Positions 12,001 to 27,000 of a stretch of DNA of 42,696 nt are shown piece by piece. The stretch's first letter is position 1. Each line of letters begins with the position of its first letter. Where the stretch lies: NCBI GenBank assembly GCA_037446635.1, contig JBBIIG010000001.1, positions 1 through 42,696 of the forward strand. Reading direction: 5' to 3'. The position numbers were made by a program. The DNA is from a bacterium (GTDB lineage: Bacteria > Zhuqueibacterota > Zhuqueibacteria > Oceanimicrobiales > Oceanimicrobiaceae).

Positions 12001-15000
12001 CGGATTTTCCGAAATCAGTGGGCGGCAACATGACCTCGCCATCGATCATGGTTTTATCGCGGTCGGCGTAACTGGCAGCGGAAGGTTCGGAAATCGCCGG
12101 CGCGATGAAGGCATCGGCATCGAACATGGTTTTTTCAGAAGCCGCAGCCATTTTATCATCTACTGACTTAGACTTCTCTGTTGGGAGCTTCAAATTTTGA
12201 AAAATAAAATCGAATTTATGCGCGAAGGTGATGACGTGCAGGTCGCCCAATTTTTCTTTGAATTTCACCGGCGCGCCATCGACGCGGGTGCCGTTACGGC
12301 TGTTTAAATCTTCAACAAAAAAGCAGCCTTCCCCGTCGTCGTAATAGATGCGAGCGTGCTGGCTGGAGATGATGTCGGCATCCAACACGCAATCGTTCGT
12401 TGGGTGCTTGCCGACGGTGGCTTCGTTGTTGATGAGAAATTCCTTGCCGGCGAGCTGGCCGGTTTTGCAGAACAACTTGGCTTGCATCTGATTAGGACTC
12501 CTTCATGTCTAAAAGGTACGCTTACTAAACCTTCAAGGTTTGGTAAACGTCTTTCCATTCTCTCATTGCGCCGCCCCCCTGAACCGCGAAAGTTTGTTCG
12601 GATGAAACTCGTGGCAGGTCACGCAGCTATTGGATGTCAAGCCCGGTTTGTGGCAAGCATGGCAATTGGAAATTTTCGGAATATTCAGAGTCGCGGATTG
12701 ATCGGCCATGGGCGACCCGGGCATGTCGCGCGTGATAGGAATTTCCGTGTGGCAGCCCAGGCACGGTCGAATCAACAAATGCGGCTGATGATTGAATTCC
12801 GCGACGGCGAAAATGCGCTGATTGTGCTGAACGGGTGCCACCCGCCCGCCGGCAACGACGTGGCACAAGGCGCATTTATTTTTCGCTGCGGTTAGAGCCG
12901 CGAGATCTTTGTGCCGAAATCCTCCCAGGTCGCGGAGGTGACAACCGGCGCACTGGTCTTCAAAATCGATATCCTTAAAATGCCTGCCGTCCGATTCGAA
13001 CTGATGACACGACAGGCAGTTTTTTTCAATTTCTTTCATTTTGGAATATTCGGTTGCGTGGTTGATGTGGCTGAAAATCAGGTTGCCGTTGTCCGGGGTT
13101 TGGTTGCGCGCGAAAGCAAATTCCGGGTGGCCGCTGTTGAAGGAACCAAAGTTGTGACAACTTTGACAGCGGGCATCGGGGGCGCTGGTCACCGGCGCGC
13201 GGCGTCCTCGGTGTTCGAGGTGGCAAGCATAACACGGACGCTCATAATCGCTGTATTCCTTTTGCCCTAGGTTCCGGCGTTCGAGGTTGTCGGAGCGGTA
13301 AATGTAATGCGCCGCAAAATCAAAGATGCGGCCGCGGTTGCCGCTGAGGTCGTGGCAGCCGGAACATTTGTCGCTGGCCACGTCGCCAAAACTTTGGTGG
13401 CAGTGGGCGCAGTCTTTTTCCAAATTAGCATGTTGGGAGGAAAGCGGTCCGCTGGAAATCAGGCTGTCGTTGAAGAAAATGGTGTCGGCTAAAAAATAGA
13501 GCGCAAACGCCAGGCACCCCAGCACACCGATGGCGATCATGCGCCGGCGCGTGATAGGGTAGATGTACTGTTTCGAGACCGGCAGCTTCAGCGGACTAAA
13601 AGAGCCTTTGCGGGTATCGTCGGTTTGATTGGGCATAACAAATTTGACTATTTGGCTTTTTGGTCAAGAAGTCTGGAATTTCTTAGCGTCTTCTGTTTGA
13701 CAAGTGCTTCCCTTCAATCTGAACGTAGACGATTCCTACTACGGCGATAATGCCAAGGATGATAAGAGCAATGGCATAGTATGTCATTTTTATTTCACCT
13801 CCGTTGCATCAAGTAGATAACCCAATACGAAAAATAGAGTGGCAACAACAAAACCTCCGACAAACATTATCAGGCTCACATTTTCTGGTCTTGCTAATGG
13901 ACTGATCTCGTTAATTGTAAGAATTATTTTTGCTAAAATCGAAAGAAAATTTGCCCAAATTGTCTTTTTGTTTTTCAGTTTTGATAAGTTGCATAAACTT
14001 GTTCCCGCAACTAATAATACCACACCGCATAAATATGCAACGCGATCAACAGAATCAAAACCAGCGACGCCGGGACGTGCAAATATAGCCACCAGCGCAG
14101 CGCCTTTTGCAGCGTGTAGTGAGCATCCAACTCCAGCTTGGTTTTGTAATAGGATTCTAATTGGTCGAGGCGGGCTTTTTCATCAACGGGCAGTACTTTG
14201 CTCAAATAGTCGAACTGTTTGATTTGAGATTGCACGCCGCCAGTGATATCGAAATAATAGACCAATTTCAATTGCGGACCGCGCAGCGCCGCCGCAATAT
14301 TCTTGCGATAAAATTCCTTCACCGGATCGGTGCAGAATTTCAGCAGCTCTTCGCTGCGCTCGCGAATTTCCTGAATGAGCTCCGGAATGCGCTCGTAAAT
14401 TACCTCCACGGTGAGTCCGGAAGTGAGCAAGCGGGGAATCCACTTCTGCAAAAAGACACCGAAGAGTCCGCTGACCGCCACCCAGATACTCAAAATAAAA
14501 AGCCACCACGTGAGCGTGCCGGTGGGCAGGCGAAAGCCACTGTGCATCAGTACCAGCAGCAGCGACAGTGTGCCAGCATAGACGTGGAATTGTACCCAGG
14601 TTTGCGCGCGGCCAGCGCTGAATTTTTTTGTGTGCCGGGTGATGCGCCGGCGAATTCCGTAAAGTCCGGCGCCGGCCATCAAAACTGCAGCAGCGATGCC
14701 GTAGCTTAATCCCAGCCACGAGCCAGGATTCGCTTCAGAGAAAAGAATATTCAGCAGATAAATGAGCTTGCAAACCCCGGCGGCAATCACAAATCCCCAA
14801 AACCAGCGGGGCGCTTGCACCAGCTTATTGATGCGTTGGATGAACGATTTTATCATTTTTATTTTTAAGTGCAAAAATACGCTGCGCTGATTTTTCCACT
14901 CCCATTCGTGCAATTCGTGGTTTCATCAGATATTCAGCAACGCTTGAAATTCCTCCAAACTTCCTACCCGTACCGCGCAGCCATTGGGACAACTGCGCAC

Positions 15001-24000: not shown

Positions 24001-27000
24001 TTGGAAGAGCCTTCTTTTTCTTTGCCGCAGCCAACTAACACTGTCAGGCAGAACATAATTGCGATCAATAATAGTTTGCCATTGGACATGGTTTTGTCCC
24101 TTTGTTTATTGGAGAGATGAACCTTGAATCCTTCGCAGGGGTTACTTCAACATCAGCAACTTGCGCGTCAGGCGCACTCCGTCGCCGACCAATTGATACA
24201 CGTAAACTCCGCTGGCCACGGATTGCCCGGCCTGATCGCGGCCATCCCACACCGCGGCGTGAAAACCCGCCGGCCGGGTTTCATCAATCAACGTGGCGAT
24301 TTCCTCGCCCAGCAGATTGTAAATTTTCAGCGTTACCCGGCTTTGCTGCGGCAAGCCGAAGCGAATGGTGGTGGTCGGGTTGAACGGGTTGGGGAAATTC
24401 TGCGCTAACTCAAAAGTTGCCGGCAGCGCCGACAAATCGCCGAGCTCGTCGCCGAGAAATTCCCGCGTGCCCACCAGCAGTTTCAACCGTTTTGGATGGC
24501 CTTCGTTGTCGCCGGCAATCATGTAGGAATTCGTCTCCCGCAAATTGGTTTTAATTTTGAGCGCTTCGTCCACGAGATAGATTTCGGGCGCAAAACCTTC
24601 CGAAGGTTTCAAGTCTTCGGAAGGTTGGAAGGTCAACCGCACCGCGTCGCGGATGTTGGTTCTAACTTCGAATTCCCAAATCTCGCCGTCGAGCGGTTCA
24701 GGGCGGACGTCGGTGGTGTAACTCGAAGCGATCTGCCCCCACTCCGGATGGGGAAAATAGACGGAGACGTACTCGCCAATCACCGGCGCTTCGGGGAGAT
24801 CGAATTCGTCCCAGCCGGCGGCGGCGTCCGCGCGCACGGCGGCGAGCGTTTGCGTGTCGCGGGCGTTTTGAATGTGAGCGGAGATGCGAATGGTCCATTC
24901 ATACTCGACATGCGCGAGATTTTCTTTTGGCGCCGAAGCCGTTGCCGAGCCGAGCAGCGGATCGATGAGCAATTGGTCCGCGGCGTTGCGGAAAACGGCG
25001 TAGCCATCGAAGGGTTGGAGAGAGCCGGTGAAGGTGACGAACTCGCCGTTGAAGGCGCGGATGTCGAGGGCTGCACCGCTGCCTAATCGCACTTTGGAAA
25101 GGGGAATGGCGAAGGTGAAGGGGCTGCCCACGAAATTCCAGCCGGCGGTGAGGTTGAAGGCAAACGGGTTGTCGGTGCGGCTGGAGCGGCCGGCGCCGGT
25201 GTCGATGACTTTGCCAGCGGAACGGACAATCAACCAAAAGGCTTTGCCGGGTACAAGGTTGCCGACGTTGGGAAATTCAGCGTAGGATTGGTTGTTGCCA
25301 GCGTCAATTCCACCGGAGGCGTTGGGGCGCAATTCAAAGAAGCGCCACTCGGTGTCGTCGTATGCGCCGAGATCATCCACCAAAACCGCGTTGGCGGATT
25401 TGGCGTCGGCATCGAACGGAATTGAAATCAACCGATAGCCGTTTTGGGCGCTGCCTGCCGGCTGCGCGGTGGATTTCACCACGCCGGGATCGGGGACGGT
25501 GACTTGCACACTGAAAAATCCGGCAGCCGGCTCGCGGTCCGAAAGCCCTCCCAGATCCAGCGCTTCGATGAAATACTCCACGCCGCGATCGGTCACCGAG
25601 GCCGCGGGGATCGTCCCCGAAAACGTGCTGCCGGATTGGGTCATGTTAGCGGAGGAGAAGGCGTTGTCACCGGCGCGGCGGAATTTCAGCGTGGCGGAGT
25701 TGAGGCCGCCGGCGTCCGTAATGGTGGCGCTGATGGTGATATCCTGATTCACCGCCGCGGTGGTGGCGGCGGTGTGAGTGATCATGGGGGGAAGATTCAC
25801 TTCGATCTCGTCCACCGTGGTGGGGACGAATCCACCCAAAAGCGAAAATTGCGCGCTGCTGGCCAGGTTGCCGCTGACGGGCTGACCAAAAATAGAGGCC
25901 ACCAGCGCGAAATTGGCGGATTGCGCCGCGCCGCCGGACGTGCTCTGTTCGGAAGAGGGCAGGGTGGTTTGCGCCGTCGCTTCCGCGAACCCGATCCCCA
26001 AAATTAAAAAGAGGAAGAAATTTATTTTCATTTTTTTACCTTGAATAATATTAAACACTGAAAACACCGAAACCACTGAAGAGCCGTTATTTTTGGTTTT
26101 GAAATATGAACAACACTAATTCTTAGATGCGCCATTTTTATTTTCTCGCTGCCGTTTGGAGCTATTCGGTTTCACCTGCGGCTTCGCCGTGATCGCGTCG
26201 ATGGATTCCGGCAGGCGGGTATTTTTGATCGCCTGCGTCTCCGGCTGGCCAAACAGCTCTGGCTCTAAAAAGTGGTTTTGTTCAGTCGGCGTTTTGGCCT
26301 GCTCGACCGGAATGCGATGCGCCTCGGCAAAGGCGTCTTTGCGAATGCCGGTCACCTGCCACGACACCTCGCCGCCGGGGACGCCGCCAGCAATCTTGAA
26401 TTGCCGGTTAGCCATTTTCTCGGCGATGTAGAGATTCGGCCCGGGCGCGCCAATGGGGGTGAGCTGGTAGCGAAAATCGCGATTGAGCGCCTCGAACCAT
26501 TCCGGCATTTCCACCACCGCCTCACCGTTAGCGTCCAGAGTGACATTGCCGTTGTAAACGTTCATCATGTCCGGACTTTCCACGAAGGAGTGGTTGAGAT
26601 ATTTATTGGCCGGATCGAGCGGGTGGTCGATCTGAAATCCGCCGCCTTGTTTGAAGAGGAAGCCGGTGACGGTAACGCTTCCACTAAAAAAACCAGCCGA
26701 ACCGGTGGAATTGGCGTGCTCAGCAAAAATGGTGGAGAAAGGGTTGGTACTATTGTCGATCCGAAAGAACCCAGCATTGTTTTGACCATTGGTTCTCCCC
26801 ACCACTGCTACTCCTTGACTGGTCGGATTATCCACCTGGAAAAAACCGCCGGTACTGTTAATACTGGCGCCAGTATTGAAGCCTAACACCGCGGTAACTT
26901 GTCCATCTGTAATGCCAGCGAGGGCCGCGGCCTGACTGTTGGGATTATTGGTTTCAAAAAGGCCGGTGTTGCCGAGGCCGATATTAAAAACTTCCAACAC

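Follow-up and report, generated by a model that had tools for sequence, protein, structure and literature searches.

The closest described counterparts of the locus studied here are PCC4 subgroup II (He et al. 2017, PMC5566968) and ptdABCDEFG (Elbon et al., 10.1101/2023.11.21.568154), which can be equated from their descriptions and whose function is itself putative. They combine the porin-cytochrome pair PtdA/PtdB with a c554-type cytochrome (PtdD), a CNB/4Fe-4S protein (PtdE), a five-helix inner-membrane protein (IMP, PtdF) with two WX3HX13H motifs and SGXXG, an anchored decahaem cytochrome (PtdG) and a cytoplasmic FAD/NAD(P) oxidoreductase encoded nearby; the PF13247 CNB/4Fe-4S gene lies directly upstream of the IMP gene and the decahaem gene follows it. 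The closest described analogues of the IMP are ferric reductase and NOX domains, and inward electron flow to quinone through the IMP was proposed (PMC5566968). The NHC cluster of the Fe(II) oxidiser Ferrigenium straubiae is transcribed and also has an anchored multihaem cytochrome, a five-helix membrane protein, 4Fe-4S and FHA (10.64898/2026.01.22.701106); in the available part of that source, by whose description alone homology is drawn, FHA sits on the cytochrome and no barrel or LVIVD cytochrome is described.

Outer parts of other kinds are known. According to the available part of the report on Geobacter extHIJKLMNOPQS, a substrate-type porin is combined with a periplasmic multihaem chain, and ExtI, the porin of that operon, has been tied to selenite/tellurite reduction, Fe(III) citrate being reduced without it (PMC5877670). 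Barrel and decahaem genes are adjacent in MtrAB/MtrCAB, where MtrB is a predicted 28-strand porin (PMC7096707, part of the text). AlgE and the OprD/Occ channels share an 18-strand fold, and the AlgE pore measures ~5 Å (PMC4118822, part of the text).

Gene content of the C1 locus

The window analysed was a stretch of 42,696 nucleotides (positions 1 to 42,696 of contig JBBIIG010000001.1, assembly GCA_037446635.1) from a bacterium of the Oceanimicrobiaceae, and the locus, C1, occupies positions 8448-24089. The C1 genes of the initial annotation were all found on the minus strand at the positions in Table 1, although that list omitted the IMP gene and the genes at 8448-12487. Its haem counts also held, residue shuffling (2000 per cytochrome) giving at most one or two CxxCH. 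A terminator-like hairpin (8286-8256) follows the PP2C gene, and promoter and repeat scans of the locus gave nothing distinctive. A look-up of RNA evidence listed no entry for 14011-24000, which has no bearing on expression. The AT-rich insert contains one 147-aa ORF without Pfam match and a 91-aa stop-to-stop C39-peptidase-like frame at 16592-16864. Within C1, neither TonB-dependent nor iron-uptake genes were noticed.

Table 1. Features of the C1 locus on contig JBBIIG010000001.1
Feature	Position	Strand	Properties
PP2C Ser/Thr phosphatase, Stp1/IreP-family	8448..9254	-	score exceeds NCBIfam cut-off
FAD/NAD(P)H oxidoreductase, TrxR-fold/YpdA-like	9273..11615	-	plus two FHA domains and 2Fe-2S ferredoxin
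Two-FHA adaptor protein	11630..12487	-	domain content
Membrane-anchored decahaem cytochrome, PtdG-like	12563..13636	-	357 aa, 10 CxxCH, wire-like haem density
Inner-membrane protein (IMP), PCC4 IMP/PtdF	14011..14913	-	putative di-haem b, ferric-reductase/NOX-like; likely start ATG 14856
PtdE-like cytoplasmic CNB/4Fe-4S protein	14926..16605	-	two cNMP-binding domains; likely start ATG 16572
AT-rich insert, outside conserved system	16606..17409	-	GC 0.42; missing from closest relative's locus (L205)
LVIVD decahaem cytochrome	17410..20901	-	1163 aa, 10 CxxCH, Sec-type signal
AlgE/OprD-class outer-membrane barrel, unnamed family	20969..22513	-	514 aa, 18 strands, C-terminal Phe
Lipoprotein, PtdD-like carrier	22617..24089	-	490 aa; lipobox; SH3, c554-type tetrahaem and class III (c3) domains

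C1 shares with PCC4/Ptd all the inner features listed above. It differs in having an AlgE-like barrel and a 1163-aa decahaem/propeller protein instead of PtdA/PtdB, a TrxR-fold flavoprotein with FHA instead of the FNR-family PtdC, and CNB domains that have lost their arginines. The route had been called complete and undescribed; this cannot stand for the inner half, because it matches PCC4, ptdDEFG and NHC, whereas the outer barrel/decahaem half was not found described. Literature searches found no description of the barrel family or of the barrel/LVIVD-decahaem pair, although PCC4 and bioRxiv supplements might list such loci, and the outer half, a narrow channel with a docked ten-haem protein, appears to be undescribed. 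The new part is the barrel with its ExtM-related decahaem/propeller partner, the inner half having already been published as PCC4/Ptd.

Comparison loci count as PCC4/Ptd here on the strength of their gene order, haem counts and domains rather than of sequences taken from the papers. A profile of four PtdB/PCC4 porins matched none of this genome's ORFs and matched G019 at E 1.7e-128; against the barrel family hhalign gave 0.2%, the profile being thin and a very remote kinship possible. Nor was a pentahaem PtdA (about 600-750 aa) found, the sole five-haem ORF among 34 ORFs with at least two CxxCH having 216 aa. One genome of the same family carries the same inner chain with PtdA/PtdB in place of the barrel/LVIVD pair, which shows that the outer modules swap. 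PCC4, Ptd and NHC, separately named and putative, can be joined into a single modular chain whose outer parts are interchangeable.

The genome also contains the paralogous set, C2, reported previously. C2 and C1 share 43% identity in the decahaem cytochrome (N-terminal 251 aligned columns), 53% in the CNB/Fe-S protein, 45% in the LVIVD cytochrome and 34% in the barrel; the IMP and Fe-S protein are encoded by one fused gene in C2 and by separate genes in C1. A recent duplication was ruled out, since the copies sit in two deep clades (FastTree, midpoint root, 75 sequences). Both sets consist of real genes and are old versions of a predicted envelope-spanning electron chain.

Proposed electron entry, inner chain and regulation

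We consider the chances evenly balanced that C1 encodes a modular envelope electron chain ending in a channel-fed periplasmic multihaem enzyme. Electrons would pass from NAD(P)H to the FAD flavoprotein and its 2Fe-2S domain, then to four 4Fe-4S clusters of the CNB protein, cross the inner membrane through two b haems of the IMP, enter the anchored decahaem wire and reach the LVIVD decahaem through the c554/c3 lipoprotein. The propeller would hold the LVIVD cytochrome on the periplasmic turns of the barrel, and a small solute coming through the barrel would meet the haem domain and be reduced. Of this picture, the genes with their motifs, folds, linkage and fusions and the swap of modules are shown, and the contact of barrel and propeller is predicted; cofactor binding, carrier order, catalysis, outward direction and regulation are inferred.

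An origin in the quinone pool, as first assumed, was not borne out: no export signal is visible in the Fe-S protein, NrfD is missing from the locus, and the locus includes a linked NAD(P)H flavoprotein. The N-terminus of the Fe-S protein consists of CNB domains, no twin-arginine leader was seen in it by eye, and it scored 36 bits versus 378 on TIGR03149; NrfD had no match among 27 window proteins. The cytoplasmic end looks like an NAD(P)H site rather than an NrfCD quinone site, because a FAD/NAD(P)H-FHA flavoprotein is encoded nearby and proteobacteria carry a domain of this sort within the Fe-S protein itself. The flavoprotein (PF13738, FHA and PF00111) is the probable point of electron entry in the cytoplasm. 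Proteobacterial loci encode the CNB/Fe-S protein and a TrxR-fold flavoprotein as one fusion, whereas C1 has a separate FHA-bearing gene; PCC4/Ptd loci have a non-homologous FNR-family flavoprotein (PF00175/PF00970/PF00111) in the same place. Among 41 relatives the flavoprotein was found in 9 of the 13 with a full-length LVIVD cytochrome and in 1 of the 28 without. The near-complete relatives G006, G010 and G011 have barrel and cytochrome and no flavoprotein match with this query. In some loci (L014, L015) the pair is linked instead to a NapC/NrfH-like tetrahaem, implying that some versions can draw on quinol as donor.

With 16 invariant Cys, the Fe-S domain has enough for the four 4Fe-4S clusters it would carry. 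The IMP has both WX3HX13H motifs in each copy, together with SGLFG in C1 and SGIVG in C2; hydropathy gave four helices in C1 and five in C2, and a short positive loop is compatible with an N-in topology that places His pairs at both faces of the membrane. The anchored decahaem has 27 aa per haem and is 26-29% identical to the decahaems of Ptd-type loci L139-L141. The c554 lipoprotein does contain the seven CxxCH counted initially, but eight haems are likely because of a CX4CH motif at 445 and a homologue with eight CxxCH; its SH3 and class III domains make it a longer fusion than the PtdD type.

The same anatomy could run in reverse, the docked cytochrome oxidising an Fe(II) chelate or a reduced sulfur or nitrogen donor and passing electrons to quinone or NAD(P)+. 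This would agree with the inward flow proposed for PCC4 and with transcription of NHC in an Fe(II) oxidiser. Ahead of a hydrogenase, Alteromonas has an FNR/2Fe-2S gene, a homologue of the IMP and a cytochrome with 7 haems, an arrangement that suggests inward flow through this IMP type there, and the flavoprotein was not found in some carriers. However, NAD(P)+ reduction from c haems demands a very low-potential donor or proton-motive force, the ferric reductase and NOX domains analogous to the IMP work outward, and the family of the NapC-like partners in L014 and L015 typically supplies periplasmic reductases with electrons. Reverse operation is therefore quite unlikely, and outward flow, given this architecture, is somewhat the likelier direction.

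In the CNB domains the phosphate-binding Arg is replaced by Q198 and W330. FHA genes occur in 16 of 20 GWPQ-form loci, the 20 being close kin, and in none of 39 other loci. A strict swap of cNMP for phosphothreonine was ruled out, as the acidobacterial loci L236 and L237 keep Arg and have FHA on the decahaem. Regulation of the chain probably falls to the FHA domains, PP2C and Ser/Thr kinases encoded nearby. Recurrence of CNB, FHA, PP2C and kinase genes at the loci would also fit a system that is not bioenergetic, performing low-flux envelope redox sensing or reductive iron/haem acquisition and reporting to cNMP and Ser/Thr signalling, as would the resemblance of the IMP to ferric reductase domains and a double HbpS-like lipoprotein gene before the barrel in most large-clade loci (fused in L031 and L174). 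Against this, some 28 c haems, four 4Fe-4S clusters and a flavoprotein would be a large outlay for a sensor, a search accompanied by a control found the double HbpS-like gene in none of five genomes of C1's own clade, and no iron-uptake genes were noticed in C1, making such a role very unlikely.

The barrel and the LVIVD cytochrome

A new model of the barrel (pLDDT 86.1) reproduced the 18 strands and AlgE-like fold reported before. AlgE was the best structural match (Foldseek E 5.6e-18; VIA Z 29.4, rmsd 3.5, 365 aligned), with OprD/Occ channels at Z 25-28 and MtrB at Z 12.0 and rmsd 6.0, and ESM Atlas features scored 0.97 to alginate-export clusters. Identity to the AlgE/OprD class is 13-14%; no Pfam model, alginate export PF13372 included, matched the barrel at E 0.01, and PDB sequence searches gave nothing significant for barrel or LVIVD cytochrome. 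Polar lumen residues, loops L3 and L7 and the periplasmic turns are conserved in the family. Unlike AlgE and OprD/Occ, the C1 barrel has a cytochrome as partner, and no polysaccharide genes were noticed in the cluster. The barrel belongs to the substrate-channel class, so that electron delivery to the cell surface is doubtful.

The LVIVD cytochrome consists of an ExtM-related decahaem domain (38-707) and an LVIVD beta-propeller (about 733-1119). On the ExtM profile NF040943 the haem domain scored E 5e-30 and 104 bits (whole-protein cut-off 800), and a true ExtM among distant loci scored 927. Ext differs from C1 in using Rieske/cytochrome b, and ExtM-like proteins have no propeller; the C1-type barrel was found in none of 28 distant ExtM-like loci. 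Alongside the ten haems, 12 non-motif His are invariant in a 41-sequence alignment, several of the extra His being near-invariant in the alignment of 142 sequences. The haem domain was modelled poorly (mean pLDDT 69, long stretches below 50), and matches in fold searches were confined to the propeller. Kinship with octahaem nitrite reductase (E 0.015) was rejected, the match being a short common haem-pair motif. The C1 protein has no lipobox or Tat motif, and an OmpA peptidoglycan-binding domain occurs in 2 of 120 homologues (C-terminal, 1220-1293 in P0214). The cytochrome is probably periplasmic, since the propeller was modelled on the periplasmic turns of the barrel and two homologues have this peptidoglycan-binding domain.

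Adjacency of the two genes, previously deduced from shared contigs, was now read directly in the loci and is nearly constant in several phyla. A complex model of the barrel with cytochrome residues 625-1163, which follow the haem domain (29-624), scored 0.83 against 0.00 for the best of three controls, a mark reached by 116 of 157 solved pairs and 2 of 215 mismatched pairs. Between runs, 74% or more of the contacts agreed, with partner pLDDT at least 89. Propeller residues 824-839 touch the periplasmic turns in the model, all named barrel contacts being turns on the C-terminus side, and the propeller is thus predicted to dock the cytochrome on the periplasmic face. Interface conservation is 0.70 versus 0.55 on the barrel side and, at 0.60 versus 0.62 for the surroundings, not higher on the cytochrome side. 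The proposed pairing of porin and giant cytochrome therefore holds for a functional and probably physical pair, but its interpretation as a surface conduit is doubtful.

In a true porin-cytochrome conduit, part of the haem domain or another cytochrome would enter the barrel from the periplasm and exchange electrons with minerals, humics or electrodes. Consistent with this are the adjacency and predicted binding of barrel and decahaem, their taking the place of PtdA/PtdB before the same inner chain, barrels fused to a c3-type tetrahaem (P0114, L230), one cytochrome with 18 additional haems (P0197) and two secretin genes in the genome, and haems might run by a narrow path into the barrel. However, the fold is of AlgE/Occ class with conserved L3/L7 and a polar lumen, in contrast to the wide barrel with 28 strands predicted for MtrB; MtrA and MtrB families gave no match at cut-off. 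In addition, haems are spaced twice as widely as in MtrA (67 versus about 33 aa per haem), the modelled contact on the periplasmic turns is a haem-free propeller, and carriers include Sphingobium and marine gammaproteobacteria, which are aerobic heterotrophs. We thus regard a conduit as unlikely. Genome surveys read porin and cytochrome gene pairs as mineral respiration, but a C1-type pair may be a channel-fed enzyme.

Distribution of the barrel family

The barrel has 252 relatives, and of the 120 best relatives of the cytochrome 119 carry LVIVD; both earlier counts were reproduced. Within the host's phylum 32 of 167 genomes carry the barrel family. It was also found in 9 of 401 Pseudomonadota genomes and, in two further phyla, in 22 and 23 of the 201 genomes sampled from each. 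It is a tentative idea, which we think possible, that the barrel and the LVIVD cytochrome are a new class of outer-membrane redox machine: a multihaem enzyme fed by a channel and having an undescribed active site, or else a narrow path of haems, held beneath an AlgE-like pore. It would be one of several plug-in heads on a NOX-like chain that uses up cytoplasmic NADPH beyond the inner membrane, under cyclic-nucleotide or phosphothreonine control, in many ordinary aerobes of at least six phyla. A complete copy of the cluster is present in the cultured Sphingobium herbicidovorans, which opens the question to ordinary genetics and biochemistry.

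Gene content of the C1 and C2 clusters

The five genes listed in the initial annotation were recovered on the minus strand with the same lengths and CxxCH counts, and the cytochromes' counts far exceed chance (a maximum of one or two motifs in 2000 shuffles). The paralogous gene set on C2 was also found, with 34-55% identity to C1. The extent first assigned to the cluster was too small, since C1 also includes the inner-membrane protein (IMP), a PP2C phosphatase, a protein made of two FHA domains, and a flavoprotein that combines two further FHA domains with a 2Fe-2S domain. The 1350 aa given for the C2 cytochrome is likely too long: its signal peptide ends near residue 111, so the real start probably lies about 60-90 codons past the first start codon.

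C1 and C2 are members of two deep clades. The flavoprotein gene is absent from the C2 cluster, and C1 has the flavoprotein and phosphatase genes without an adjoining kinase; the two clusters may therefore share parts. The AT-rich insert of C1 holds a 147-aa ORF without a Pfam match, as well as a 91-aa C39-peptidase-like frame (E 7e-8) that is probably a remnant. Close homologues bearing names derive from candidate division KSB1, which makes the host a probable member.

Features of the window and of related loci
Feature	Position	Strand	Remark
Flavoprotein	9273-11615	minus	
Anchored decahaem cytochrome	12563-13636	minus	
AT-rich gap	13637-14010		GC 0.36; separates IMP and decahaem genes
Sigma70-like site	13787-13759		inside the gap; match to consensus alone
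IMP	14011-14913	minus	not in the initial list
CNB/4Fe-4S protein	14926-16605	minus	
AT-rich insert	16606-17409; frames 16592-17360	minus	between outer and inner genes; missing at closest relative's locus
Large LVIVD decahaem cytochrome	17410-20901	minus	1163 aa
Barrel	20969-22513	minus	
c554-type lipoprotein	22617-24089	minus	
Upstream block	24142-42686	minus	secreted proteins whose tails are of FlgD/Por type; TPR/CsgG-like proteins; family-less 371-aa protein with terminal Phe; two PEGA Ser/Thr kinases
Gene in this region	26116-27753		N-terminus mosaic-adhesive-trimer-like
C2 cytochrome	G000:C2:88991-93067		
C2 extra genes	G000:C2:95002-96588, 97629-98501, 82062-83450, 80791-82065		double HbpS-like lipoprotein, two-FHA gene, Ser/Thr kinase, DUF5777-type barrel
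50-kb island, host genome	G000:C20:5860-55535		N-termini only: 14 ORFs with at least 3 CxxCH motifs (14 haems at most); pairs resembling Rieske/cytochrome b; genes for barrel-like proteins; molybdopterin enzyme beside tetrahaem
Hybrid locus L245	G019:C154:2000-21224		outer PtdA/PtdB genes; inner FHA-type chain as in the window
Alteromonas macleodii locus L097	NZ_OX335041.1 7980-16594		FNR/2Fe-2S gene, IMP homologue and 7-haem cytochrome ahead of NiFe hydrogenase genes

The outer barrel and its large cytochrome

The outer barrel and the large cytochrome form a separate, conserved pair. Close relatives of the cytochrome served as seeds for 52 loci, and a profile search placed the barrel at 46 of them; L036, where it was found on re-reading, adds to these, and the remaining five begin inside the cytochrome gene. 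None of 28 distant loci had the barrel. Conversely, the cytochrome lies directly downstream at 49 of 53 barrel-seeded loci (after dropping five: the genome's own C2 copy, one duplicate and three unpublished genomes), while one of the rest is cut off by a contig edge and three, all planctomycete, show no such cytochrome within 1.5 kb. The 20-kb planctomycete stretches L227 and L238 contained the barrel and no large cytochrome. The barrel was found in 32/167 genomes of the host's phylum, 9/401 Pseudomonadota genomes, and at least 22/201 and 23/201 genomes of the phyla of the acidobacterial and planctomycete seeds, seeds included; three unpublished genomes (G563, G567, G620) are counted within 32/167 and 22/201 and used for no other claim. 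The nine proteobacterial carriers are also the nine top-ranking IMP matches, and cultured Sphingobium herbicidovorans MH (NZ_CP020539) has a complete cluster. Fusions were also seen: an OmpA domain (P0214, P0232) or 18 extra N-terminal haems (P0197) on the large cytochrome, and a c3-type tetrahaem joined to the barrel (P0114, L230).

The predicted model of the barrel (pLDDT 86.1) has 18 strands and bears out the AlgE-like fold proposed initially (Z 29.4, with an rmsd of 3.5 across 365 residues), with OprD/Occ channels at Z 25-28 and a far poorer match to MtrB (Z 12.0, rmsd 6.0). Across 95 sequences the polar residues lining the lumen are conserved, as are loops L3 and L7 and the turns on the periplasmic side. 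AlgE is described as having a pore of about 5 A and a periplasmic partner (PMC4118822). MtrB is described as a porin of 28 predicted strands that holds MtrA (PMC7096707).

The large cytochrome carries a Sec-type leader and neither a lipobox nor a Tat motif, and 2 of 120 homologues have an OmpA peptidoglycan-binding domain. A complex of barrel residues 56-514 with cytochrome residues 625-1163, a piece that leaves nine of the ten haems outside, was modelled with a score of 0.83 against 0.00 for the best control; this mark was reached by 116/157 solved and 2/215 mismatched pairs, a calibration roughly valid for self-built alignments. The runs agreed in at least 74% of contacts, with partner pLDDT of at least 89. 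Predicted barrel contacts (218, 254-260, 297-303, 342-347, 425-431, 475) fall in turns T3-T8, which are periplasmic because they lie on the same side as the barrel C-terminus; those on the cytochrome are 824-839, 665-666 and 904-905. Conservation of the contact side was above average on the barrel (0.70 vs 0.55) and not above its surroundings on the cytochrome (0.60 vs 0.62). The complex model supports a putative binding of the two proteins.

In its C-terminal part the cytochrome folds as a beta-propeller (Z 30.9, rmsd 2.2, 276 residues vs 1l0q), and its haem domain has Geobacter ExtM as a relative, at a score under the cut-off. ExtI, the porin of the ExtM operon, is reported to influence selenite and tellurite conversion and to be dispensable for Fe(III) citrate reduction (PMC5877670). 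The large cytochrome has 67 aa per haem vs 27 in the anchored decahaem and about 33 in MtrA. Twelve non-motif His are invariant in 41 sequences, as are Tyr, Lys and Arg residues of stretches that lack haem sites; in a 142-sequence alignment, some of the extra His are no more than near-invariant. The haem domain, although weakly modelled, seems to fit an enzyme better than a wire. A true surface conduit is considered unlikely.

The inner half: electron source, control and published relatives

Electrons would start at cytoplasmic NAD(P)H, cross the inner membrane through a di-haem membrane protein and reach a periplasmic multihaem enzyme docked beneath a substrate channel, a chain that is the preferred reading and to which we give about even chances. 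In the Fe-S protein 16 Cys are invariant, and an export signal is not visible. It forms one fusion with the IMP in C2 and is fused to a TrxR-fold flavoprotein in proteobacterial loci; in the window this flavoprotein domain, which bears motifs for FAD and NAD(P)H, is a separate gene. Of 41 genomes, 13 have a full-length LVIVD cytochrome, and 9 of these carry the flavoprotein; among the other 28, only G019 does. The query used found no flavoprotein in G006, G010 and G011 (96-99% complete), which makes quinone or some other donor possible. The quinone pool, originally named as the source, is a candidate, with NAD(P)H preferred. The host genome also has genes for cytochrome c maturation and two for haem-copper oxidases. 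Electron flow in the inward direction appears somewhat less probable even than a conduit.

Both CNB domains in the window have lost the Arg that, by analogy with CRP, we take to bind phosphate. FHA, kinase and phosphatase genes recur across loci, including beside intact CNB domains (L236, L237), so control by phosphorylation is plausible and a strict swap to phospho-control is not supported. Sensing or iron handling, as the role of the whole set, is the least probable of the readings weighed.

The inner half of the route, which initially was said to look complete and undescribed, is already in print; the outer pair appears undescribed. The IMP has two WX3HX13H motifs and SGXXG, which define the inner-membrane protein of the hypothetical PCC3/PCC4 clusters (He et al. 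2017, PMC5566968); there PCC4 comprises a porin, cytochromes with 4, 5 and 10 haems, and an Fe-S gene that lies upstream of the one for the IMP. What looks like the same layout was called ptdABCDEFG by Elbon et al., who list its function as unknown (10.1101/2023.11.21.568154), and a 2026 preprint describes a nonahaem/five-helix/4Fe-4S set carrying an FHA domain (10.64898/2026.01.22.701106). An IMP-profile search of 401 Pseudomonadota genomes gave 35 matches, and 20 stretches were read. The CNB/Fe-S, IMP, decahaem and tetrahaem proteins of these Ptd-type loci are homologous to their window counterparts; their porin has no detectable kinship with the window barrel and no match in the host genome. 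C1 resembles PCC4/Ptd in its inner half but falls outside it on PtdA, PtdB and PtdC.

The barrel and large-cytochrome pair was not described in literature on LVIVD/multihaem proteins, HbpS with porins, Ptd/PCC4 since 2018 and KSB1 multihaem proteins, a set with few subscription papers; its only LVIVD match mentions such a protein as a possible adhesin (10.1101/2022.05.06.490989). The outer module appears undescribed, and the whole is a version of a kind that is already known, though untested.

Exchange of outer modules

Outer modules swap on a common inner chain. G019 belongs to the host's family, and its genome, 97% complete, has no match to the barrel or the full-length LVIVD cytochrome. Its inner genes are the same as those in the window (identities: CNB/Fe-S 59%, IMP 62%, decahaem 42-48%, flavoprotein 65%; the two-FHA gene is also there) and follow those of a PtdA-like pentahaem, with 58% identity to Ptd-type loci, and of a PtdB porin (E 1.7e-128). 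The barrel pair occurs with a NapC/NrfH-like tetrahaem in L014 and L015, and with an IMP and 20- and 7-haem cytochromes in L011. The double HbpS-like lipoprotein gene was found in 0 of 5 genomes of the C1 clade (positive control run); in the other clade it precedes the barrel in most cases, and L031 and L174 show the two as a fusion.

The A. macleodii arrangement puts the inner module to another use. At L081, L083, L085 and L086, ExtM-like 11-haem cytochromes follow a tetrahaem and a DsrO/DsrP-like pair; here the related haem domain is linked to quinone.
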